Origin: Nitrospirota bacterium
Lineage (GTDB): Bacteria; Nitrospirota; UBA9217
Assembly (NCBI GenBank): GCA_963826885.1
Contig: CAWGYL010000002.1
Span: 129,756-193,755, forward strand
Direction: 5' to 3'
DNA length: 64,000 bases
In this document: positions 35,467 to 50,550 of the stretch, piece by piece
Numbering within the stretch: the stretch's first letter is position 1
Layout of the letters: each line of letters opens with the position of its first letter
Translations under genes and position numbers: made by a program
Notes under the pieces: model-generated
The model's database searches: none
Told to the model about the DNA's origin: nothing
The model's input: the letters and a program-made list of their open reading frames with translations, nothing else

Positions 35467-38106
35467 ATGGCGGTACGTCATAAGCATAAAAGTATACGGT
35501 ACAGATTCCTCAAAGATCTGTCGGTTATCCTCTTTATAAGCACTGTTGTTCTGAGTACGGTCATTGCAGTAAACGAGGGTCGGATGCTCAATCGGTCCCT
35601 TATTACCAAGGGTAGAAGTTTCGCATCCTACATAGCCAAACTCAGTAAGGATCCGCTGATCATGAAGGACAGCATTCAGCTTGATTCAATTGTCAGCGAC
35701 GCAAGCAAAGATGAAGATATCCTGTATGCCGTGATCGATGATGCCAATGGAAGCCTCACTACCTCCCAGTTCGCCAGTATCAATTACCGGTCTCCGCGAT
35801 TGAAGGCCATCCTGAAGGGTCTGCCGAAAGAGAGTGAACTCCAGAATATTATTGACGCCATCAGGAAGCGAGGGGCTGCAACGGAAGTTTCCATGCCTAT
35901 TTTTTCGGGTCTGTACAAGATAGGTGAAGTGACTATTTGCCTGTCGCAGTACGCCATCCACCGGCAGATCTTGAACACTGTGCTTTTCATACTCGTACTC
36001 AACATCGCCGTGGCTTTTATCCTCGGCTATGTTGTGTTTTCCGTGTCTAGACAGGTTCTCTTCAAACCGCTGGCTGAACTTGCCGGAGCGACGGATCGTC
36101 TTGCAAAAGGCGATCTCACATCCCGGATTACACTGCAGGCCGCCGATGAACTGCAGGTGCTGTTTGATAATTTCAACCGCATGGCCGAGGACCTTGACAA
36201 ATCGACGGTGTCCAAGGCATACATGGATAACATCATCGAGGGCATGATCAACACATTCATCGTGGCTGATCAAGAAGATAAAATCATAAGGGCCAATGCC
36301 GCGACTTGCAGTCTCCTGGATTACCGCGAAGATGAATTGAAAGGGAAACCCATTAACACGATTCTTGCAGGGAACGAAGCGGCAAATTATTTTCAGATAA
36401 AGACACTGCCGGTGGAGAAACGCATCAACATGCTTGAGGGCTCCTACAGGGCAAAGGGCGGTCAAATGATACCGGTGCTTCTATCAGTGTCTGCCCTGTA
36501 CGATGAGAAGAACGTACACCAGAGTACGGTTTACATCGCGCAGGATTTCACCGAGCGCAAGAAAACGGAGGAGTTGATAAAGCAGAACGAAATTTTCATC
36601 AAAAGCATCCTTGAAAGCGTGGATGAGGGTTTTGTCGTCGTAGGCAAGGATTACCGGATCATCTCGGCGAACAGGGCTTTTTGCGACAAGGCCGGGATGA
36701 CCATTGAAGATGCAATCGGCAGATACTGCCATGAAGTGTACCAACGCCGCACGACCCCCTGTTTTGAGGCCGGGGTGCAGTGCTCCGTGAAGCACACTCT
36801 CGAAACCGGTGAACACGCCGCATTTATGCATACACATTGCGATGAACACGGAATCCCAATGTACGTTGATACAAAGTCGTATGCCATGCGGGACGCCACG
36901 GGCAATGTGACCTCCGTGATCGAGATCAGCGTCGATGTCACCGAGAAGAAAAAACTGGAAGATCAATACCGACATGCGCAGAAAATGGAGGCGATAGGCC
37001 AGCTTGCTGGCGGCGTGGCGCACGATTTCAACAATATCCTGTCCGCGATCATCGGCTACGGTCACCTTTCTCAGATGAAACTACGCGACGACGATCCGGT
37101 GAGGCACTATATCGACCAGATTTTACAGTCTTCGGAGCGCGCAGCCGCTTTGACACAGAGCCTGCTCGCATTCAGCAGAAAGCAGCCCGCGAAAAAAGAG
37201 CTTCAAGAATTGAACTCAGTGATCAGGAATTTTGAGAAATTCCTGCACCGCCTGCTGCGCGAAGACATCGAGATGACGACCCGATACTCGATCGAGCGGC
37301 CCGTGATTATGGCAGATCGGGGACAAGTTGAGCAGGTGATCATGAATCTCGTTACGAACGCACGTGATGCCATCCCGGACAGGGGGAAACTGACCATCGA
37401 TACCAAGGTCAGTGCCATGGACGAGGCGTTTTTACGGGCTCACGGTTACGGCAAGGTGGGAGACTATGCCATGCTGTCGGTGTCGGACACTGGCGTTGGA
37501 ATGAATAAAGAGACCAAGAAGAGGATTTTCGAACCGTTCTTCACAACCAAGGAAATGGGAAAAGGGACCGGTCTCGGACTGGCTATAGTGTATGGGATCG
37601 TGAAAGCGCACGATGGTTTCATTAATGTGTATTCTGAGCCGGAGAAAGGGACCACCTTTCACGTTTACTTCCCCGTGGTCAGAACGACGAATGCCGTGCC
37701 TGAACTTGCGGAGCAAATTCCGGTCCCGCTCAAGGGTGGAAACGAAACGATCTTCCTCGCTGAGGACGACGCGAGTCTACGCAATATGACGTCGGTCGTT
37801 CTCCGGGGAATGGGATATACAGTGATCGAGGCGGAGGACGGTGACAGGGCGGTTGTCAGGTTCGGCGAGAACCGCGCAACAATCAAACTCGTGATTCTTG
37901 ATGGCATTATGCCAAAGATGAACGGCTTGGAAGCGTATCAGAAGATCAGCGCTCTCAACCCGAATATCCGTTGCATTTTCATGAGCGGCTATTCGGGAGA
38001 AGTATTCGCACAGAGCGGCTTGCCGAACGGCACGGAGTTCCTACCGAAACCGGTAAAGCCATCGGAGCTGTTGAGCAAGGTTAGGGAAATGCTTGACAGG
38101 GAATAG
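35467..38106 (+). CDS. Hybrid sensor histidine kinase (periplasmic sensor, HAMP, PAS, HisKA, HATPase_c, C-terminal receiver)
   Basis: Two TM segments bracket a periplasmic domain. HDFNNILSAIIGY is the H-box. DTGVGM...GTGLGLAIV are the G-boxes. The C-terminal receiver has ...LAEDD... and ...LVILDGIMP..., with the Asp in ILD. Confidence 0.85.
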   Translation: MAVRHKHKSIRYRFLKDLSVILFISTVVLSTVIAVNEGRMLNRSLITKGRSFASYIAKLSKDPLIMKDSIQLDSIVSDASKDEDILYAVIDDANGSLTTSQFASINYRSPRLKAILKGLPKESELQNIIDAIRKRGAATEVSMPIFSGLYKIGEVTICLSQYAIHRQILNTVLFILVLNIAVAFILGYVVFSVSRQVLFKPLAELAGATDRLAKGDLTSRITLQAADELQVLFDNFNRMAEDLDKSTVSKAYMDNIIEGMINTFIVADQEDKIIRANAATCSLLDYREDELKGKPINTILAGNEAANYFQIKTLPVEKRINMLEGSYRAKGGQMIPVLLSVSALYDEKNVHQSTVYIAQDFTERKKTEELIKQNEIFIKSILESVDEGFVVVGKDYRIISANRAFCDKAGMTIEDAIGRYCHEVYQRRTTPCFEAGVQCSVKHTLETGEHAAFMHTHCDEHGIPMYVDTKSYAMRDATGNVTSVIEISVDVTEKKKLEDQYRHAQKMEAIGQLAGGVAHDFNNILSAIIGYGHLSQMKLRDDDPVRHYIDQILQSSERAAALTQSLLAFSRKQPAKKELQELNSVIRNFEKFLHRLLREDIEMTTRYSIERPVIMADRGQVEQVIMNLVTNARDAIPDRGKLTIDTKVSAMDEAFLRAHGYGKVGDYAMLSVSDTGVGMNKETKKRIFEPFFTTKEMGKGTGLGLAIVYGIVKAHDGFINVYSEPEKGTTFHVYFPVVRTTNAVPELAEQIPVPLKGGNETIFLAEDDASLRNMTSVVLRGMGYTVIEAEDGDRAVVRFGENRATIKLVILDGIMPKMNGLEAYQKISALNPNIRCIFMSGYSGEVFAQSGLPNGTEFLPKPVKPSELLSKVREMLDRE

Positions 38107-38300
38107 CAAGAGACAAGAACGAGGAGTGAATGCCCGCCTCTCATCTTATATTCACAATTTACAAACCGATTTGTTGATTGTTTCAAAAAATGAGAACTAC
38201 ACGCTTGTAGGTGGATCTCGGAGAGCCAAGATTAGTCTACTACAGAATCTATACACCCCAATTCGCCTTTCTGACATTAGACAGAGTCTGTTTATTAATT

Positions 38301-38434: not shown

Positions 38435-38650
38435 ATGCCAAGAACATATGCTTAATGCGTAATCGTGTCAATGATTCCGATGGAGTGTTTTAGAGTAGAT
38501 GTATGAGAATTCAAGTTCAAGTAAGCCGCTCCGCGGCAGAGAAGCAAAGACCGCTTCCTTCGCCTGTCCCATCTCGCCTGATTTTTTTTGAGTAATTTCC
38601 GTGCTACCATATTTCTCCATTGCAGTTCAATCTTATTTCACAAGGAGAAT

Positions 38651-39523
38651 ATGGTCATGGAAAACTGGTACGAGAAGTCCATCAATGCTTTGCAACTGAG
38701 CGGTATGTCCGAACGAACGCAGGCAAACTACACCCGCGCGGTGCGGCTGCTCACCGAGCATTACGGCAAGACCCCCGATCTCATTACCGAAGAAGAGCTT
38801 CAGGAGTACTTCCTCAATCGCAGGAATGTCAGCAAGTGGGCGCCCAACACCATGCGCATCTGCTATGCCGGGATCCGCTTCTTCTTTGAGACCGTACTTC
38901 AGCGCGACTGGCACATTCTCAGCATCATCCGGGCTCAGCCAGAACACCGGCTACCCACCGTACTCAGTACCGAAGAGGTGCTCAACATTCTCGCCCGAGT
39001 CTCTTCTCGTCGCAACCGCGCCTTCCTCTCCACGGTTTACTCCTGTGGTCTCCGGCTTCAGGAAGCGCGGTACCTAGAAACCGCTGATATCGACAGCAGT
39101 CGTATGATGATCCACATACGTAAGGGCAAAGGCGCGAAGGATCGTTACGTTCCACTTCCTCATGCGACGCTTGCCATTTTGCGAAAGCATTGGGATACAC
39201 ACAAAAACCCGAGGCTGATCTTCCCCTCACGGGTCTTACACGGCAAAAAATCGGATAGTCAGATCCCGGTCTCTATCAGCACAGTACAGAGAGCGCTCCG
39301 GGACGCGGTACATGCTGCGGGCATCCAGAAACGCGACGTTTCCATCCATACCTTGCGTCACTCGTATGCGACCCATTTGTTAGAAGCCGGTGTCAATCTG
39401 CGTGTGATCCAGCGGTATATGGGCCACTCCAGCCTTGAGACCACGATGATCTATCTCCATCTGACGACCAAGGGTCAGGATGATGCCTTCAAGCTCATCG
39501 ACCAGATCATGGTGGGGTTCTGA
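38651..39523 (+). CDS. Tyrosine recombinase / phage-integrase-family protein (orfA of the IS91-family element)
   Basis: R...HTLRHSYATHLLEAGVNLRVIQRYMGHSSLETTMIYLHL carries the R-H-R-Y catalytic box with the terminal Tyr. RBS aaggaga before the ATG at 38651. Confidence 0.8.
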   Translation: MVMENWYEKSINALQLSGMSERTQANYTRAVRLLTEHYGKTPDLITEEELQEYFLNRRNVSKWAPNTMRICYAGIRFFFETVLQRDWHILSIIRAQPEHRLPTVLSTEEVLNILARVSSRRNRAFLSTVYSCGLRLQEARYLETADIDSSRMMIHIRKGKGAKDRYVPLPHATLAILRKHWDTHKNPRLIFPSRVLHGKKSDSQIPVSISTVQRALRDAVHAAGIQKRDVSIHTLRHSYATHLLEAGVNLRVIQRYMGHSSLETTMIYLHLTTKGQDDAFKLIDQIMVGF

Positions 39524-39525
39524 TC

Positions 39526-40620
39526 ATGGATACGGTCAATGACATCTTCCGCACCTATGCCCCGGAGTACCTGACGCGGTTTGGTGGCGCTATCCCTGGG
39601 GAACATCGTAAGGCGATAACCGCGATTATCAACTGCCGCACCCCGGCCTCTGGAACGACCTACTTTCGGTGCGAATCGTGCGGGGAGCGGCACGCGATTC
39701 ACCGCTCCTGCGGAAATCGCCACTGCCCGACCTGCCAACATCATAAGAGTCAACAGTGGCTCGAAAAACAGCTTGATCGGCGTGTGCCGGGGCACCACTT
39801 CATGATTACCTTCACGGTGCCGGAACAAATTCGCCGGTTTATCCGGAGCAACCAGCGGGCGGCTTACGCCGCCCTGTTTTCCGCCTCCTCCGAAGCCATG
39901 AAAAAGCTGGTTCTCGACCCTAAGTTCATGGGCGGCGATCTGCCAGGCTTCTTCGGAGTCCTGCACACTTGGGGCAGAACGCTTGAGTATCATCCTCATA
40001 TCCACTATATCGTCGTAGGCGGAGCGCTCTCGTCTGATGACAAGACCTGGAAGCCCTCAGGAACCGGCTTCTATGTGCCGGTCGAAGCGTTGTCTCCCAT
40101 CTTTCGAGCGAAGTTCAAAGACGAAATGAAAAAGGCCGGTCTTTTTGATCAAATACCCGACGAAGTATGGCGAATTGACTGGAACGTAAACTCTCAGGCA
40201 ATTGGTTCAAGCGAGGCAAGCCTCAAGTATCTTGCCCCCTATGTCTTCCGGGTAGCCTTGTCCAACAGCCGTATCGTGAAAGTTGAGAACCGTCAGGTCT
40301 TCATTCGGTACAAAAAGACCGGGAGCAATCGCTGGAGGATGCTGGTCCTGGACGTAATGGAGTTTGTGCGCCGATTCCTCCAGCACGTGCTGCCAACGGG
40401 GTTCATGAAGGTGCGATATTACGGTTTCCTGAACGCCGCGTGCAAGGTCCCGCTTGAGAACATCAGGACGCTGATTGAGCTGGCTTATGGATTCGAGGTA
40501 ACAATGTCTGAAATCGAACAGATGCCGCCATTGCCCCGTCCAACCTGTGGAAGCTGCGGCGGCACGCTCAAAGTGCTTTATGTCTCTCTGCCGCATCAGC
40601 ACCTGGCACGCGCCGGATAG
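39526..40620 (+). CDS. IS91-family transposase (HUH endonuclease, Y2 type)
   Basis: N-terminal zinc-finger-like CxxC...HxxxCxxC (CESCGERHAIHRSCGNRHCPTC). HUH motif in HTWGRTLEYHPHIHYIV. The twin-tyrosine region YLAPYVFRVALSNSRI is present, as is C-terminal CGSCGG. Confidence 0.85.
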   Translation: MDTVNDIFRTYAPEYLTRFGGAIPGEHRKAITAIINCRTPASGTTYFRCESCGERHAIHRSCGNRHCPTCQHHKSQQWLEKQLDRRVPGHHFMITFTVPEQIRRFIRSNQRAAYAALFSASSEAMKKLVLDPKFMGGDLPGFFGVLHTWGRTLEYHPHIHYIVVGGALSSDDKTWKPSGTGFYVPVEALSPIFRAKFKDEMKKAGLFDQIPDEVWRIDWNVNSQAIGSSEASLKYLAPYVFRVALSNSRIVKVENRQVFIRYKKTGSNRWRMLVLDVMEFVRRFLQHVLPTGFMKVRYYGFLNAACKVPLENIRTLIELAYGFEVTMSEIEQMPPLPRPTCGSCGGTLKVLYVSLPHQHLARAG

Positions 40621-40967
40621 CATTTGACGATTCTGATGTACCATGTGTTTCTGACGTGTGGTCCCGCGGGTATTATCCGCGCGGTCAACGGCCCCGTTCG
40701 GCCATGTGCGCGGATTAGGCGTTCACTCCACGATACGCTAATCAAGAGAATCGCACTGGTTTCACGATAAACAGATTAAAACAGTCTATGGCACTCCATA
40801 ATCTACTCACTTCAGGCTTTCACCGGATATCACCCACCGAAGCATTACCCTATATATAGAGGACATCGGCCATCAGTCTGCCGCTCCGGGCTTCTTGAAC
40901 TATGGATTGAGCACGACGTAAAGATGTCGTCTCAATCCTTTTTGGTTGAAAATTACATCGTTCCAAA

Positions 40968-41110
40968 AAATGGAAACTCGTTTGCTACAGGAAGGATCTG
41001 CTGACAGAAAACATTATTACAAAATGCAATGATACATGTGATACAAAATGAATTCTGTACCTTCGCTAATATTATATGAAACTGGACTTCACTTTCTAGT
41101 CTGCAATTTC
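40968..41110. repeat. Interspersed modular repeat, B-type copy 1
   Basis: aatggaaact...caggaaggatctgctgacagaaaacattattacaaaatgcaatgatacatgtgatacaaaatgaattctgtaccttcgctaatattatatgaaactggacttcac is about 85-90% identical to 59090-59232. Confidence 0.75.
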
Positions 41111-41200
41111 GGCCTGCTGCTAGATGCGTTTATGTACGCCCGGTACAGGCATGAATTTATTGAGGTGCAAGTTCCCTGTACGAATATTCACTGATTTATT

Positions 41201-42301
41201 TTAGATGACAGAATCAGTTTCCTTCTTCGGTATCGGTGGAAGTTGTGCAGGGGACATTTCGGGCCCGAGTAATATCGCGATCCAACGTGTGCTTTTGTGA
41301 TTCTCGCACACATATTTCAGAGTCATGGTCAAAGGTATGCTCAGAACCACACCGATAAGACCGAGCAGGCCTCCCCAAAAAACCAGAGAGATAAATACAA
41401 CAAGCGTGGACAGGCCAAGCCTCCGACCCATGAGCACCGGCTCGACTACGTTGCCAAAAATGAAATCAACGGCCAGATATCCGATAGCCGCGAGCGAAGC
41501 ACGGCCTATCCCGAACTGGATCACGGCAAGAAAAACTGCGGGAACGGCGGCAATAAGCGCGCCGACATTAGGTACATAGTGGAGCAAAAATGCCAGGAAA
41601 CCCCAGAGAATGGGGAAATCTACACCGAGGAATGACAGCCATAACCCGATCAGGACACCTGTTATCAGACTAATTGCCGTTTTAATGGCCATATAGCGGT
41701 TGATATCATAGACGAACCTCATAAACCGGTGAAAGTCATGCTGAGGATCATCAAGAATAGCGCGGAATTTGATGGGAAAGCTCGAAGCTTCAAGGAGTAT
41801 GAAGGTTACGGCGAGCAGAATCAAGACGATCTCGAACAGCGCCGAGCCCAGCCCCTTGAACAAGCTGGCGGTCAGGCTCTTCACCGCTTCCGGTTTCATC
41901 TGATCGAGCAGAATAGAGTCCGTGAACGGGATACCCTTGGTTGCTAAAAACGTCTGGAGTGAAGAAAGATGCATCTGTAAGCGCGTCTGATAATATGGGA
42001 GATTCGCGTAAAAACTTTTAAGAGACGCGACGACGAGCCCTCCGATAACCACTAGAATAGTAGCCATGCACATCACCACGAGCAACACCGCGACTACATG
42101 AGGAATGCGTTTCTGCTCAATCCAGTGGACCGACGGCGTGCCGATGGCAGCCAGGAAGACAGCGACGAGAAACCATACCAGGACCGATTGTGCCTGATGA
42201 ATGTCTCCAGTGATGATCGCGAGCGCTGCCAAAATGACGAGTATGCGTGTTCCGCGGTGGGGATCACTTGGTTCAGCCATGGGCAAATACCTCTTCAACA
42301 A
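41201..42301 (-). CDS. AI-2E family transporter (PerM/UPF0118 permease)
   Basis: About 8 TM helices and 366 aa. Conserved LLHYVPNVGALIAAVPAV / GLLGLIGVVLSIPL pattern typical of AI-2E family permeases. Confidence 0.75.
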   Translation of the reverse strand: MLKRYLPMAEPSDPHRGTRILVILAALAIITGDIHQAQSVLVWFLVAVFLAAIGTPSVHWIEQKRIPHVVAVLLVVMCMATILVVIGGLVVASLKSFYANLPYYQTRLQMHLSSLQTFLATKGIPFTDSILLDQMKPEAVKSLTASLFKGLGSALFEIVLILLAVTFILLEASSFPIKFRAILDDPQHDFHRFMRFVYDINRYMAIKTAISLITGVLIGLWLSFLGVDFPILWGFLAFLLHYVPNVGALIAAVPAVFLAVIQFGIGRASLAAIGYLAVDFIFGNVVEPVLMGRRLGLSTLVVFISLVFWGGLLGLIGVVLSIPLTMTLKYVCENHKSTRWIAILLGPEMSPAQLPPIPKKETDSVI

Positions 42302-42499
42302 AGGATTATCGTTTCCGTGCTCCCGGGAAAAAGCGGAGATTCTGATGATTTGCTTCTTGAGTAAGCCGGTGGTCTATCCGGCAACTTCTGAATCAGACCC
42401 TCTGCTCCATCTCCGAGGCGTATTTGCCGAGACGCGCGAGGCCGTTCAGCCTCGCACGCTTGAAACAAATCCCAAGTAGCCCCTCATTAGGTGCTGAAT

Positions 42500-43480
42500 T
42501 CAATGAAAAACAGCTTCTGTCTGTTCCACCTTTTTCCACGTTTTATCAGGGTCATATGCTGTAACTGCTTTTGCTATCTCTTCCGTCTTGGGCCCGAGGT
42601 CCTTTTCATATACAACACCCTTTTGGTTAACCATGAAGGTCATGATCCCCGAAACGCCGTACTGTGCAGGATATGCCGCCAGGCCAAAACCTTTTACCAT
42701 TTTGCTGTTGACTACGTAATCAAGTTCGCCACCGGGAGCATTGCTGCCCTGGCTTTTCAGGATCTTGAAATAATACCCGTGATAAGGTGAGGGCTTTTCT
42801 CCTTTCCTAAATGTGTATCCTTCTTCTGTTGCACGGGCAATGAGTGGACCCAGAGGACTACTTTCCTCTCCAGAAGCGGCTTCCCAGTACAGGCCATCCT
42901 TCTCGTTTTTCTGGCTCTGAAAGTGTTGCGCGTATTGTAGTACTGCGTCGCTATTGCGTTCCTTGCTGGCATACTCACGCTGGGCATCCACATAAGCGAG
43001 AGAAACCTGAATGGTATTCAATTCGTTTCTGCCTATTCTCCGATTTATGATCTCTTCCTTACCATCTTCTGTAAAAAAAATCCATCCCTGGCCTGACTTC
43101 ACAATGGGAATCGGGAAGCACCATACATCTTTTCCGATATATACTAATAGTGTCTTGTCGTCAAATTTTGAAAACTTAACTCCTTCTGCAGCAGCCTTAG
43201 CGAAACGTTGGCGGCCCTGCGTATCGGCAATGGCATCGCCAGAGGATATGACATCTTTGCTTCCAGACCCGAAAATGGCCAGTAATTCTTTGGTGTCATT
43301 GTTCTTGTCTGCCTCTAAGAGAGCACTGAATGCGTCTTGTGGAGACTTGAACTCTCTTTGCCTTATTTCCTGAGCAGAGGCGAGAAAACCAAAAGCCGTT
43401 ACTTCAATTATGATCATGAAAGCTGCTAAATCACGGCAAAAAAAAGGGTTTTTTAGTTTTGTTACACGTCTGAACATCAT
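42500..43480 (-). CDS. Secreted protein of unknown function (resembles DUF2950-family proteins; attribution from memory, unverified)
   Basis: Signal peptide (K-rich n-region, ...AFGFLASA). About 300-aa mature protein with no catalytic motif. Likely start MMFRR at 43480 with perfect RBS ggaggaaaga. Co-oriented and closely spaced with 43571-44638 and the AI-2E transporter. Confidence 0.45.
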   Translation of the reverse strand: MMFRRVTKLKNPFFCRDLAAFMIIIEVTAFGFLASAQEIRQREFKSPQDAFSALLEADKNNDTKELLAIFGSGSKDVISSGDAIADTQGRQRFAKAAAEGVKFSKFDDKTLLVYIGKDVWCFPIPIVKSGQGWIFFTEDGKEEIINRRIGRNELNTIQVSLAYVDAQREYASKERNSDAVLQYAQHFQSQKNEKDGLYWEAASGEESSPLGPLIARATEEGYTFRKGEKPSPYHGYYFKILKSQGSNAPGGELDYVVNSKMVKGFGLAAYPAQYGVSGIMTFMVNQKGVVYEKDLGPKTEEIAKAVTAYDPDKTWKKVEQTEAVFH

Positions 43481-43570
43481 TCTTTCCTCCATAAATCGGC
43501 AATCCGATAATATTTCATTCATTTTTAATAACCGAGAGATGACGTCTGGCCGTCGAGACACTACATAGTT

Positions 43571-44638
43571 TCACCTGGAACGCCCGCCACGCCCGCCACC
43601 CCCGCCACCATGGTATCCTCCCCCACCGCCACCACGGGGAACTCCACCACCACTACCACGGATAACTCCACCACCAGTGGAGCTTCTACTAGCGGGGATT
43701 TGACCGGCCCTGGAGCGGCTTTGGAATCCACGGTTGCTCGCGGCCCGCTCAAACCGGCTGTTAGCGGAGCGCACAAAGGCACTTGAGCGAGTTGCAGCAG
43801 AAGATCCTGACACACCGTAGCCCCTGAATTGTTTAATTGCCTGTGCACCTCTCTGCGCAGAAGGACGGGCTCTTTGCATGTCTCCAGTTTCCGCGAAAGT
43901 TCCACCACGAAATCTGTTTGTCGGATCTATGCGCGACATCCTGCCTGTCCTGGGATCGCGATAATGATTGCTGATGAATCCTCCGAGCCTGCGCTCATGT
44001 TCATGCCGATGCCCATGCACTCTAATATCAAAGTCTACGAGAACAAAAAACCCCTGGAACCAGAAATCCGACCACCAAAAAGGATAAGGTACCCAAGTAT
44101 AAAGGTATGCATAATCGGGAGGTGGAGTATAGTACGTCACAACGGGGGGGCCTTCAGTAGAGTAATAGTTGTCCATGTCTGTGGATTCAGGGTAATTCGT
44201 GCCGGGTGTTTCACCCGGCAACTGCCCCACAGCAGGTCTTACGGGCATATCATATCCCTTTATGACCTCCTGAAAAGCTGCCATTGCCGCATCTTTTCCC
44301 CCAAATAATTTCCCAGAAGCAGCCGCTTCACTAATTGAAGCTTGTACCTCATCTATAATATCAGGCGTAACCGGGTAATCGGCGATCCATCCATTTCGGG
44401 GCGTTATGCCGACAGAACTCAATGCACTCTCCGCTTCAGCCTCACTCATCGCCGCGCCAAGTTTAAACGCTTCCGTGAGATCGACCGCAAAATCTCCTTC
44501 ACGAGTAAGTGGCTGTGCTATAGGGGGGGTTGCGACATTCGTCTGCTCTGATTGTGCAATTGCTGCTGCAGGGATCAATAGCAAAACGCCTAGCATGAAA
44601 ATAAACACTCTGAACAGTGATCTCCTCCTCATACACAT
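43571..44638 (-). CDS. Secreted protein with an aromatic-rich core and a long Gly/Arg/Ser-rich low-complexity C-terminal tail (DUF3300-like, attribution uncertain)
   Basis: Signal peptide MRRRSLFRVFIFMLGVLLLIPAAAIA. Central YYTPPPDYAYLYTWVPYPFWWSDFWFQGFF and a HGHRHEHERR segment. C-terminus ...GGGVIRGSGGGVPRGGGGGGYHGGGGGGRGGRSR. Confidence 0.4.
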   Translation of the reverse strand: MCMRRRSLFRVFIFMLGVLLLIPAAAIAQSEQTNVATPPIAQPLTREGDFAVDLTEAFKLGAAMSEAEAESALSSVGITPRNGWIADYPVTPDIIDEVQASISEAAASGKLFGGKDAAMAAFQEVIKGYDMPVRPAVGQLPGETPGTNYPESTDMDNYYSTEGPPVVTYYTPPPDYAYLYTWVPYPFWWSDFWFQGFFVLVDFDIRVHGHRHEHERRLGGFISNHYRDPRTGRMSRIDPTNRFRGGTFAETGDMQRARPSAQRGAQAIKQFRGYGVSGSSAATRSSAFVRSANSRFERAASNRGFQSRSRAGQIPASRSSTGGGVIRGSGGGVPRGGGGGGYHGGGGGGRGGRSR

Positions 44639-45121
44639 TCTCCTTCCCCAACTGGACCTTCCTATATTTTATCAAATAAAATGTCCTTACGGCAATTATA
44701 TACGGCAGTTTACTTTTGGAGTTAGCAGAAGAAAGTCTCTTATGTAGCAACGCGGACGAGGGAAGCCTCCGAAAAAAATGAGCATAATGAGCAAAATAAC
44801 AAATACAGTTCGAAAACTGAAGTGTTTCAAAGAATGGAAACTACAACAGCTATAGAAAGTATTCTGCGATTTCCAAAAGATGAAACTCTCGCGGACTACA
44901 GGAAGATAGTCGATGATTGTTTCCACTTAAGATTGATGAGGGGAAAAAACTACTACAATTCTACTACAGTTACAAGAAGAGGATTTACAAATAGTGATCC
45001 AACTCCCTAAAATAATTGGTGTCTCAAGATGGATTCGAACATCTGTAACCGCCTCTATTACCCACAAAAGAAAATGAGTTATGGGAAGTACCATAACTAA
45101 TTTATTTTATAAATATAATTT

Positions 45122-45169
45122 GCGTCCCCAAGGGGATTTGAACCCCTTTTATCGCCGTGAAAGGGCGGT
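45122..45169 (-). other. Partial tRNA-Glu(UUC) gene: 3' 48 nt only (anticodon stem-loop through acceptor 3' strand). Candidate integrase att-site remnant
   Basis: The minus-strand reading ACCGCCCTTTCACGGCGATAAAAGGGGTTCAAATCCCCTTGGGGACGC aligns almost base-for-base with the 3' half of bacterial tRNA-Glu (ACCGCCCUUUCACGGCGGUAACAGGGGUUCGAAUCCCCUAGGGGACGCCA). The sequence 5' of it has no D-arm or acceptor complement. Confidence 0.6.
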
Positions 45170-45590
45170 ACGTGACATTTTCAGCAAAAAACGTAACTGG
45201 GCGATTGGCAACGGCTTTGAGCTAACTTATGAAAAATCAAACTATTTTTTCGATTCTGTCTATTCTGCGGTTTCTGTAGATTCTGCCCTTGGAGCAAAAT
45301 TCTACGACAATTCTACGACAGTCTACGGCACCAGCCATACACACCAATTCACCTTTCTAACATTAGACGGTGTCTGTTTATTAATTTCACGTGGAGTTGA
45401 AATCATCCGGCACTATCCTGTGTGGGCGGGTCACAGCGGCAAAAAGAGCGGAACTTTGTCGTCAGAAAATATGCAAAACAATAGCACGATCAATCAACAT
45501 TTGGTTTCATTCTTTCGCAAAATGTTCGTCAATTGACCCGGGTTCGTGCAAATGCTCTTGCATACATTGCGTCATTTTATGCATCATCTT

Positions 45591-46331
45591 TTATGCGCTC
45601 CCGGCGCAGCACTTCTTGTACTTCTTGCCGCTCCCGCATGGACATAATTGATTACGGTGTATCTTGTCCATGCGCGCGGGAGTGGGCTTTTCGCTTGGGA
45701 TTATCGGTCTTCTCATTCCCCGCGGCTCGGCTAGTCTGGATTCGCGCAAGCCCGCATTGATCCTCGCGATACAATGGATCATCACTTCCTCGAGTTGCGA
45801 AACGTTCTTCCTCGACTCGATTATATCGCTTTCCTTAGCTGTTTTCTCTCGCTCAAGCAACTCCATTAGCTTCTCCTGCACTGTGCTTACCGTTGCAAGG
45901 TCCATGAAAGCTAGTTTAACGTCTCCGGTAAGATCGGTCTCCTGCAGTCCACCCAGGTCGAGCCCTTTGATGAAATAAATTATAAACGCAAGGTGGCCCT
46001 GAATATTTTGCTTGAGCCCATCGAGAGTTTCGGGGTATTCTGTATCGGGGTAGACATATTCTCCCTGTTCCGGCTTCCAGCTCGCAATAAGATTCCAGAG
46101 AGACATGATGTTTCCGAGTGTCATGTTTGCATCGTCCAGGGATTCGAAGGGCTTTCTGTCCTCCCGGCCGAGAATAAGTTCCAGAAAGTCCGATGGCTTA
46201 ACCATATGCGGTGCTGCGATGCAGCCGTAGAACAGACCGTAGACCTCATAGAGCGTCCGTTTTGACCCACATTTCTCCAGCGATTCTCGCATGGTCGTGT
46301 CGCCGCAGTAGGCATTCGGTGGTGTGAACAT
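45591..46331 (-). CDS. YecA/UPF0149-like protein with a C-terminal SEC-C metal-binding motif
   Basis: C-terminal ...LCPCGSGKKYKKCCAGS is the SEC-C zinc-binding motif. The N-terminal ~200 aa are acidic and alpha-helical. Confidence 0.6.
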   Translation of the reverse strand: MFTPPNAYCGDTTMRESLEKCGSKRTLYEVYGLFYGCIAAPHMVKPSDFLELILGREDRKPFESLDDANMTLGNIMSLWNLIASWKPEQGEYVYPDTEYPETLDGLKQNIQGHLAFIIYFIKGLDLGGLQETDLTGDVKLAFMDLATVSTVQEKLMELLEREKTAKESDIIESRKNVSQLEEVMIHCIARINAGLRESRLAEPRGMRRPIIPSEKPTPARMDKIHRNQLCPCGSGKKYKKCCAGSA

Positions 46332-46361
46332 GTATCCCCTTTTTTTAAAAAGCAGCAGGCT

Positions 46362-46856
46362 TCAGCCCGTATGACTCTTCTTTTTCGGCGCTGTCTTCTT
46401 CAAATAATTTTCGAAAAGTTCGCAAGTGCTTTCGAATGCACTCTGATCCCTTTCCGTCATGTGATCGTAGCCGTCAGGCAGTATACCGCCAGATTCGACG
46501 GATTCCATAAGCTTCTTGAGGGGAGTGGTTTTGTACTCTTCGTACATCGAAACATGTCTGATGATCAATCCGCCCAACAGCCATGCATTGTCGATATGGA
46601 TTTTCAGCGTCTTCCGGGACCGATTACCTTTTACTTTTATGAGCACGTCCAGAAACTCTTCCATATATGACAGCAGTTTCTTTCCATATTCACGATCTTC
46701 CCTGGTACCCATCCATCGCTCTGGCCATTTGTCGAAATCGGGAGACGGTTCCGCAGGGTTATAGGCCGTTCTGCTCCCGCCTTTCTCACCATATTTGACA
46801 CTCCCTTTCCTAAGCAGCATTGCTTGAACTTTTAGAGTATGTCCGGATCTCCCCAA
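46362..46856 (-). CDS. Hypothetical cytoplasmic protein
   Basis: 164-aa ORF co-oriented with flanking genes. No recognisable motif. Confidence 0.35.
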   Translation of the reverse strand: MGRSGHTLKVQAMLLRKGSVKYGEKGGSRTAYNPAEPSPDFDKWPERWMGTREDREYGKKLLSYMEEFLDVLIKVKGNRSRKTLKIHIDNAWLLGGLIIRHVSMYEEYKTTPLKKLMESVESGGILPDGYDHMTERDQSAFESTCELFENYLKKTAPKKKSHTG

Positions 46857-47016
46857 ATGATATTAAGTAATAATATCACACCGTTATTTTTTTAATGAGA
46901 TGCACCAGAATTCCGTATTAGTCTTTTACTCCACGATTATAGACCATATTGAATACATGGGAATTGCCAACCGCACACTGTCGCCCCCCACGTCCCTCTT
47001 GAACAACTGGTTAAAC

Positions 47017-47310
47017 CTATTTCATTCTGTCAATCCAATAGTCCGGTTGTCTGTGTAAATGCGCGAACGCAAGAACAACTATTTTGTCATCCTGAATGGA
47101 ATAGAGAATTTTGTATGGGAATTTGTGTACGATGTACCGCCGAATTTCTTTCCGCTCGGACGGCCACGCTTGAGGGTATTGTTGTATGCGGACAAGGGAA
47201 TGCCTGATTTGTTCCTCGAACTGGGTTCCTACGCCCGGTTGCTCTATTTCATAAAACTCTTTAGCCTCATCATATTCCCGACGGGCAATTTCGAGAATTT
47301 CTATGAACAT
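47017..47310 (-). CDS. Type II toxin, RelE/ParE family
   Basis: 97 aa with ...IRRYIVHKFPYKILYSIQDDKIVVLAFAHLHRQPDYW typical of ParE/RelE plasmid-stabilisation toxins. It sits immediately downstream of a small antitoxin ORF with a 2-bp gap. Confidence 0.8.
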   Translation of the reverse strand: MFIEILEIARREYDEAKEFYEIEQPGVGTQFEEQIRHSLVRIQQYPQAWPSERKEIRRYIVHKFPYKILYSIQDDKIVVLAFAHLHRQPDYWIDRMK

Positions 47311-47312
47311 GA

Positions 47313-47528
47313 TTATTTTCTACTGAACATGTCCTCGAAAGAGACTGTTTTAGTTTTACCGGCTTTGTAGGCTTTGAGCCTTTTCTCGGCTTCAGCCACC
47401 CACACTTTTTCAATTTTAGGATCGGGGACATCAAGGCTCTTTAGCAAGGCTTCGATTATGATGGATTTTTCTGCAGGTTTAAGATGTAAGGCTTTTGCAA
47501 TTATAGTTTTCGTTGGTGACATGTTCAC
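47313..47528 (-). CDS. Type II antitoxin (putative addiction-module component) paired with the RelE/ParE toxin
   Basis: 71 aa with Lys-rich helical ...VWVAEAEKRLKAYKAGKTKTVSFEDMFSRK. Gene order is antitoxin then toxin. Confidence 0.65.
   Translation of the reverse strand: MNMSPTKTIIAKALHLKPAEKSIIIEALLKSLDVPDPKIEKVWVAEAEKRLKAYKAGKTKTVSFEDMFSRK

Positions 47529-47913: not shown

Positions 47914-50550
<2,637 letters not shown>

Follow-up and report, generated by a model that had tools for sequence, protein, structure and literature searches.

DUF2950 and DUF3300 proteins are widespread exported proteins, DUF2950 alone comprising thousands of homologue clusters, and the pairing of their genes in Proteobacteria has already been described. 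In particular, Seshadri et al. (2015; PMC4653623) reported that DUF3300 lies upstream of DUF2950, that the two are "universally co-localized", that both products have signal peptides, and that the rhizobial DUF3300/DUF2950 pair is induced in two nodule RNA sequencing studies; our literature search returned no function for DUF2950 or DUF3300. Escherichia coli YacH (b0117) is a stand-alone DUF3300 protein that is CpxR-regulated and whose deletion alters protamine survival. Here, we describe a locus in a Nitrospirota bacterium (assembly GCA_963826885.1, contig CAWGYL010000002.1) in which a DUF2950 gene has a different upstream partner. The window is the 64,000-nucleotide (nt) stretch at positions 129,756 to 193,755 of that contig, and all coordinates given below are window positions. 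The locus comprises three open reading frames (ORFs) that are co-directional on the minus strand, as an initial annotation made from the sequence alone had stated: gene 1, encoding an exported protein; gene 2, encoding an exported DUF2950 protein; and gene 3, encoding an AI-2E family transporter. We consider it highly probable that genes 1 and 2 (44638-42500) form a self-contained two-gene cassette and, jointly with this, that gene 1 is a member of a large family without a Pfam model. New relative to the described pair are this partner family, absent from Pfam and NCBIfam and replacing DUF3300, a tail motif common to both partner families and tied to DUF2950, and a subfamily of gene 1 paralogues lacking DUF2950.

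The cassette was delimited by comparing 80 genome loci encoding gene 1 relatives, using tBLASTn and ORF clustering; nearly all of the loci are from Nitrospirota (Thermodesulfovibrionales, Dissulfurispiraceae), Desulfomonilia, Geobacteraceae, and related anaerobes. A DUF2950 gene is located immediately downstream, on the same strand, in 47 of 47 distinct full-length relatives that match gene 1 through the tail (including 2 that ORF calling missed), in agreement with the initial annotation's likening of these two secreted-protein genes to a co-occurring pair. Two further long contigs show the gene 1-DUF2950 pair in unrelated contexts. An AI-2E gene follows the pair in 0 of the 47 linked relatives. 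At one locus, an AI-2E match (28% identity) lies on the other strand at a distance of about 3.2 kb, and the sole further occurrence of the gene 2-gene 3 junction is in a contig from the same organism that is 100% identical. Clustering of all neighbours within ±10 kb revealed no conserved third gene, the commonest extra neighbours being ArsR (9 loci) and outer-membrane beta-barrel (6 loci) genes. Because DUF2950 is linked in every one of these relatives and AI-2E in none, the unit is two genes and the permease a neighbour. Specifically, gene 3 is indeed an AI-2E permease, as had been predicted (185.9 bits against PF01594, cutoff 34.3, with a full-length model match in a Pfam search; 260 bits against NCBIfam PRK12287, under the 318-bit cutoff), and it is an unrelated chance neighbour outside the conserved unit, contrary to its earlier placement in the module. 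Thus a false lead, the AI-2E transport unit, is removed.

The 198-nt gap between genes 2 and 3 (42302-42499, minus strand) folds with −76.2 kcal/mol (z = −3.95 relative to shuffles), which exceeds what a single hairpin explains. The G+C-rich hairpin within it (Table 1) is the second strongest among 48 loci and may mark where the two-gene transcript terminates at its 3′ side. The initial annotation had named a strong terminator between 42301 and 42500 as the sign of a separately transcribed permease. The hairpin is there, but it has no U tract and fails the criteria of an intrinsic-terminator scan, which found no minus-strand promoter-like or terminator-like site in the gap; across the 48 loci, no consistent hairpin follows gene 2. 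At the other end of the cassette, a predicted promoter-like site precedes gene 1, and no minus-strand terminator-like site was detected by scanning the 90-bp spacer between genes 1 and 2.

Gene 1 has no match in Pfam or NCBIfam, DUF3300 included. It has 2438 homologue clusters in a protein collection, with a precomputed Pfam domain in 0 of the 120 listed, and a scan of 1.84 billion representative proteins placed 624 clusters at 50% identity in its family, mostly from Nitrospirota and Desulfobacterota, with a uniform architecture in the best 150 of the 624. The nearest relatives (83% and 89% identity) are in a Nitrospirota metagenome-assembled genome (MAG), which by itself points to a probable Nitrospirota origin of the window. 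With more than 2400 and more than 7900 homologue clusters, respectively, genes 1 and 2 are real genes and not chance ORFs. For annotators, the gene 1 family offers a basis for a new model.

The aromatic YYTPPPDYAYLYTWVPYPFWWSDFWFQGFF core, the HGHRHEHERR cluster, and the Gly/Arg tail ending GGGGGGYHGGGGGGRGGRSR that had been ascribed to gene 1 were each found in its 355-residue ORF. The second of two possible start codons is favoured because of the spacing to the ribosome-binding site (RBS) and the upstream alignment with relatives. The signal peptide has a basic n-region and a hydrophobic core and is of Sec type, with A28 and Q29 invariant among 25 relatives; read from the sequence, the Sec-type signal peptides of genes 1 and 2 both end in a conserved A-x-A/Q, the slash marking the cleavage site. 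In the alignment of relatives, the aromatic core contains many invariant columns. The aromatic segment has a mean Kyte-Doolittle hydropathy of 0.8–1.1, which is under the transmembrane level, and a Wimley-White octanol sum of 12–17 kcal/mol favourable per 19-mer; the confidence of the AlphaFold2 (AF2) model is low over the core. The charge is asymmetric, the part before the aromatic segment having a net charge of −15 and the 150 residues past it a net charge of +21 (27 Arg, 34 Gly). Upstream of gene 1, the TTTTATTTGATAAAATATA extended −10 block is kept in the closest relatives. The conserved upstream region spans ~170 nt (44640-44830, minus strand) among the closest relatives (loci L005-L010) and includes, besides TTTTATTTGATAAAATATA, the farther blocks CCGCGTTG and CTTCTGCTAACTCCAAAAGTAAA, which are candidate regulator sites.

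Gene 2 is a DUF2950 gene, as had been proposed; it matches positions 1-274 of the 274-position PF11453 model with 369.6 bits (cutoff 20.2, Pfam search). It has at least 7989 homologue clusters, with PF11453 in 120 of the 120 listed. The 90-bp gap reported ahead of it is exact: within the maximal ORF (43561-42500), the true start codon is ATG 43480, 4 nt past the RBS GGAGGA. Its signal peptide comprises a basic n-region, a hydrophobic core, and an ASA/Q site, with A36 and Q37 nearly invariant among 38 relatives. The protein is 34–42% identical to proteobacterial DUF2950 proteins paired with DUF3300, and residues invariant in the DUF2950 proteins of both partner types include E143, R147, N152, E153, the DGLYW block, SP, Y236, QG, and GG; judged from sequence, this pattern suggests no known catalytic set. 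The N-terminal domain has a predicted NTF2-like fold, although no sequence-level membership in the NTF2-like/SnoaL-like superfamily was found, the catalytic residues of SnoaL, ketosteroid isomerase, and scytalone dehydratase were not identified in gene 2, and the structural model is unreliable over the second half.

Comparison with the DUF3300/DUF2950 pair reveals a similar layout built from a different upstream protein. As in the cassette, both genes of the pair point the same way and encode proteins with signal peptides, and DUF2950 is the second gene. In 8 of 8 plasmid loci from diverse Proteobacteria, DUF2950 is directly preceded by DUF3300, and the order DUF3300 then DUF2950 holds in 47 of the 57 metagenomic DUF3300 loci that could be assessed; in Nitrospirota and Desulfobacterota, the gene 1 family fills this genomic slot. 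In DUF3300 and gene 1 proteins alike, the signal peptide is followed by an acidic head with a folded N-domain (head net −12 to −35 in both families). A stretch rich in Tyr and Pro comes next, then a hydrophobic segment and a stretch rich in Asp and His, and both kinds of protein finish with a strongly basic, disordered tail (net +13 to +29) that has poly-Gly…RR at its end. In particular, DUF2950-linked DUF3300 tails end in GGGRR, resembling the poly-Gly end of gene 1, and DUF3300 proteins have an Asp/His/Trp-rich stretch where gene 1 has its His cluster. YacH likewise has the signal peptide, the stretch rich in Tyr and Pro, and the hydrophobic segment, followed by an Asp/His cluster and a tail that is long and basic; unlike gene 1, it has a DUF3300 N-domain (E = 1.5e-78), a tail of Gln/Arg repeats, and no adjacent DUF2950, its neighbours being lpd and acnB. 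The upstream protein of the cassette, in contrast, has no DUF3300 domain, and its N-domain and aromatic core are unrelated to DUF3300 by profile comparison. The two systems also differ in their spacers, 90 bp here versus overlapping to 81 bp in the DUF3300/DUF2950 plasmid loci, and in their hosts, anaerobic Nitrospirota and Desulfobacterota versus Proteobacteria.

The initial annotation had likened genes 1 and 2 to the DUF3300/DUF2950 pair, and the analogy stands for the slot (8/8 plasmid loci) and not for gene 1 itself, which the sequence tests do not identify as DUF3300. Specifically, a search with PF11737 (DUF3300) gave no match at E ≤ 0.1 for gene 1 and none at E ≤ 10 in 25 members of its family, with YacH as a positive control at 263.8 bits. 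When the gene 1 family was compared with DUF3300 by hhalign, the score was 11.5 for the N-domain (shuffled, 12.1 ± 2.9) and 14.3 for the core (shuffled, 12.2 ± 3.1), and the family profile gave no match to a Nitrospirota DUF3300. An hhalign comparison of the full alignments returned a probability of 96% and was discarded; block-shuffled DUF3300 reached 99.3%, and because shuffled controls score higher, the match is an artefact of Gly/Arg composition. The two families coexist on a 648-kb Nitrospirota contig that carries both a gene 1-DUF2950 pair (L006) and a DUF3300-DUF2950 pair (L074). At L074 (7315-11701), DUF3300, DUF2950, a gene 1 paralogue, and OMP_b-brl (outer-membrane beta-barrel) genes are consecutive on one strand.

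The two partner families, with unrelated N-domains, have in common a short fixed-spacing motif in the disordered tail, F-x14-RG-x2-S, which was defined in the present analysis and lies outside the Pfam model. The motif is present in 44 of 47 DUF2950-linked gene 1 relatives (1.3 expected from tail shuffles) and in 0 of 33 members of a paralogous gene 1 subfamily without a DUF2950 neighbour. It is also present in 23 of 67 metagenomic DUF3300 proteins (1.6 expected from shuffles). The strict motif occurs in 20 of 47 DUF2950-linked DUF3300 proteins versus 0 of 10 unlinked ones; with the first residue relaxed to F or aliphatic, the counts are 30 of 47 versus 1 of 10 (Fisher p = 0.003). When the poly-Gly end was trimmed off and profiles of the motif region were compared between the families, they aligned with a score of 17.9 (shuffles, 6.8 ± 1.5), a value reached by 0 of 200 shuffles. 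YacH, the stand-alone protein, lacks the motif. The association with DUF2950 carries weight because it is repeated across two families with unrelated N-domains, and, as far as sequence comparison goes, the tail motif appears to be the only element common to both partner families that tracks DUF2950. A hidden Markov model of the tail motif built from the gene 1 family was too biased for DUF3300 tails (maximum 8 bits) and was replaced by the fixed-spacing pattern with shuffle controls.

The paralogous subfamily (loci L050, L051, L054-L058, L061, L063-L069, L072-L084) has a gene 1-like signal peptide, N-domain, and aromatic core, combined with a different tail (…ISTGVPRSERTIFN…) and no DUF2950 neighbour. 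Its members are often in tandem, or beside genes for MacB-like ABC, HlyD, RND efflux, or Spy/CpxP-like (Metal_resist) proteins; an example from a named strain rather than a MAG is L083 (9935-10903) in Geobacter sp. AOG1.

These observations turn an unexplained pair into a directly testable hypothesis. In the explanation that we favour, the gene 1 and gene 2 proteins would both be exported; the aromatic segment would hold the gene 1 protein at the membrane surface; soluble periplasmic DUF2950 would dock on the tail motif; the polycationic tail would touch anionic envelope components; and the complex would help to maintain the envelope under stress (from hypoxia or growth arrest and from cationic peptides), with no part in transport. 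Taken as a whole (a two-gene envelope cassette, with DUF2950 docking on the tail and a role in stress), this explanation has, in our judgement, an even chance of being right. That both proteins act together in the envelope is probable; that DUF2950 binds the tail motif is a tentative proposal. A generalization that we offer as conjecture is a modular envelope system that would occur widely in Proteobacteria, Nitrospirota, and Desulfobacterota, serve during envelope stress from hypoxia or growth arrest, and in which unrelated exported N-modules (DUF3300, or the four-helix plus aromatic-core family) would be joined to one tail whose F-x14-RG-x2-S motif would be the DUF2950 docking site.

The genomic surroundings of the pair give hints of the proposed role in stress. 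An OMP_b-brl gene, identified with Pfam, follows the gene 1-DUF2950 pair in 6 loci (L016, L018, L019, L020, L039, and L044), and some Nitrospirota loci have, near the pair, ArsR and ferritin genes (confirmed with Pfam) or Hsp20 and ClpB genes (identified by eye from the sequences). The neighbours of proteobacterial DUF3300/DUF2950 pairs include ackA-pta-DUF3141, universal stress protein, arcABC, and arginine/ornithine decarboxylase plus antiporter genes, a set resembling the low-oxygen regulon of B. cenocepacia.

Several points weigh against the favoured explanation. The link to stress is circumstantial, coming from heterogeneous neighbourhoods and indirect E. coli and rhizobial expression data. 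The AF2 models of the two proteins are poor outside the N-domains, with a mean predicted local distance difference test score (pLDDT) of 54 and 56, and just the two N-domains are usable. The relaxed motif is missing from 17 of 47 linked DUF3300 proteins, and the association of motif and DUF2950 inside each family may in part reflect shared descent, the subfamilies being clades. Finally, if the basic tail is cytoplasmic, as the positive-inside rule and the hydropathy of the DUF3300 segment (Kyte-Doolittle 1.5–2.1) would have it, binding by a periplasmic DUF2950 would be barred.

The last point is the starting point of the main rival, which we regard as doubtful. Here gene 1, like DUF3300, would be a type I single-pass inner-membrane protein with a periplasmic acidic N-domain, a membrane-spanning aromatic or hydrophobic segment, and a cytoplasmic His cluster and Arg/Gly tail; the tail would bind RNA, DNA, polyphosphate, or acidic lipids, the motif would serve a cytoplasmic partner, and DUF2950 would either attach to the periplasmic portion or work alongside the protein. 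The acidic heads and basic tails of both families fit the positive-inside rule, the DUF3300 segment is in the transmembrane range, and by Wimley-White the gene 1 segment scores as strongly favourable. The Kyte-Doolittle value of the gene 1 segment, however, is low, and conserved Asp and Pro residues lie inside it. Moreover, the partner N-domains are unrelated while DUF2950 is conserved, and therefore a common DUF2950 site on the N-domain is unlikely; the sole element common to both families and tracking DUF2950 sits in the tail. An unlikely alternative of another kind is that gene 1 is a very divergent full-length DUF3300 homologue beyond the reach of profile detection, which would make the cassette an ordinary DUF3300/DUF2950 pair. 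Position, order of elements, tail motif, and C-terminus are all alike, and hhalign weakly aligns …VDFD-His cluster…IDxxNR with YacH (probability 47%). Set against these likenesses are the lack of a PF11737 match in 25 members even at a permissive threshold, N-domain and core profile scores equal to those of shuffled controls, the composition artefact behind the full-alignment match, the lack of a match to the Nitrospirota DUF3300 from a genome also holding a gene 1-family pair, and the very presence of both families in one genome.

The remaining two readings are less probable still. A periplasmic metal-handling system, in which gene 1 would capture Zn, Ni, or Cu through its His cluster with DUF2950 as an accessory, is in our view improbable. 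It would account for the His-rich stretch that gene 1 family members and YacH have in a corresponding place, and for the ArsR-family, ferritin, MerB, or Metal_resist-like neighbours of some loci; but the cluster varies in length, most DUF3300 partners have Asp/Trp-rich stretches instead, the metal-related neighbours are in a minority of loci and differ from locus to locus, and no conserved metal transporter lies beside the pair. A single exported-factor and permease transport unit on mobile DNA, the reading given by the initial annotation, is extremely improbable. The three genes are co-directional, neither a canonical terminator nor a canonical promoter was found in the 198-bp gap, genes for an IS91-type transposase and a recombinase lie next to them, and a 67-nt direct repeat encloses a 7.1-kb segment with all of them. 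The reading nonetheless is without comparative support, because AI-2E linkage is absent from the 47 linked relatives, the sole other instance being the identical contig of the same organism. A strong hairpin also follows gene 2, and AI-2E (PF01594) genes are common housekeeping-type permeases.

Table 1. Coordinates of the cassette, its elements, and the adjoining genes (window positions; a slash marks a signal-peptide cleavage site)
Feature	Position	Strand	Description and basis
Gene 1, exported, upstream partner of DUF2950	43571..44638	(-)	355 aa from ATG 44638; likelier start ATG 44632
Gene 1 signal peptide	44555..44638	(-)	residues 1-28 (...AAIA/QSEQ); read from sequence
Gene 1 N-terminal domain	44249..44515	(-)	residues ~42-130; predicted four-helix domain with invariant NGWIADYPxTPD
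Gene 1 Tyr/Pro/Trp/Phe-rich core	44030..44167	(-)	residues 158-203 (YY..EGPPVVTYYxPPPDYAYLYTWVPYPFWWxDFWFxGFFVLVDF); candidate membrane-seeking segment
Gene 1 His cluster HGHRHEHERR	43988..44017	(-)	residues 208-217; His-rich stretch of variable length at the same position in relatives
Gene 1 Arg/Gly/Ser-rich disordered tail	43574..43906	(-)	residues ~245-355 (~110), poly-Gly...R end; pLDDT <50
Gene 1 tail motif F-x14-RG-x2-S	43718..43777	(-)	residues 288-307 (F288...R303 G304...S307; SSAFVRSANSRFERAASNRGFQSRS); fixed-spacing pattern
Promoter-like site	44666..44695	(-)	TTGCCG, 18 nt, TAAAAT, with TG; extended -10 TGATAAAAT at 44674-44666; consensus scan, predicted
Gene 1-gene 2 spacer	43481..43570	(-)	90 bp; gene 2 RBS GGAGGA at 43485-43490; sequence
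Gene 2, exported DUF2950	42500..43480	(-)	326 aa; PF11453 E=1.1e-110
Gene 2 signal peptide	43373..43480	(-)	residues 1-36 (...FLASA/QE); read from sequence
Gene 2 N-terminal domain	43061..43360	(-)	residues ~41-140; alpha+beta, predicted NTF2-like fold
G+C-rich hairpin	42432..42459	(-)	12-bp stem, -22.1 kcal/mol, GCGUGCGAGGCUGAACGGCCUCGCGCGU; 40 nt past gene 2 stop; without U tract
Gene 3, AI-2E family transporter	41201..42301	(-)	TTG start 42301 or ATG start 42280; PF01594 E=1.5e-54
IS91-type transposase	39526-40620		Y2_Tnp + Zn_Tnp_IS91; adjoins gene 3 side
Tyrosine recombinase	38588-39523		adjoins gene 3 side

The initial annotation had placed the three genes on a mobile segment between an IS91 element and tRNA fragments, and the two ends of this description fared differently. 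On the gene 3 side, the transposase and a tyrosine recombinase are present. On the other side, the tRNA fragments are weakly supported: ARAGORN detected no tRNA anywhere in the window, and the Rfam tRNA model gave a partial, sub-threshold match at 45131-45185 (minus strand; 19.4 bits versus a gathering score of 29; model positions 10-63). A T-arm/acceptor-like …GTTCGAATCCATCTTGAGACACCA at ~45017-45050 (minus strand) was spotted by eye and was not called by ARAGORN. Such degraded tRNA-like sequences are consistent with remnants of an integration site. An Rfam scan of 40600-47000 for riboswitches and tRNAs gave nothing at E ≤ 1 apart from a chance microRNA match.

The 67-nt direct repeat (84% identity; 38234-38300 and 45320-45386) has only these two copies in the window, and the segment that they enclose comprises the tyrosine recombinase, IS91-type transposase, AI-2E, DUF2950, and gene 1 genes; the repeats may be attL/attR-like ends of an integrated element. 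A 31-nt motif (GAAAA.T.A...GTT.CAAA.AATGGAAACT) is present in three copies with 68–100% identity to the reference copy, located upstream of the recombinase gene (38168-38198), downstream of the IS91 transposase gene (40948-40978), and upstream of gene 1 (44812-44842). These copies may mark the ends of an element or serve as sites of recombination.

Paralogous hybrid PAS histidine kinases flank the region on either side (35467-38106, plus strand, 879 aa; 47914-50550, minus strand, 878 aa), and at 11 further loci a kinase of the same cluster lies no more than 10 kb from a gene 1 relative, a proximity that may reflect the mere abundance of such kinases in these genomes. Upstream of the cassette, the minus strand carries a gene for a SEC-C motif/UPF0149 protein (45591-46331) and genes for a ParE toxin and antitoxin (47017-47528), which are further signs of an accessory, variable region.

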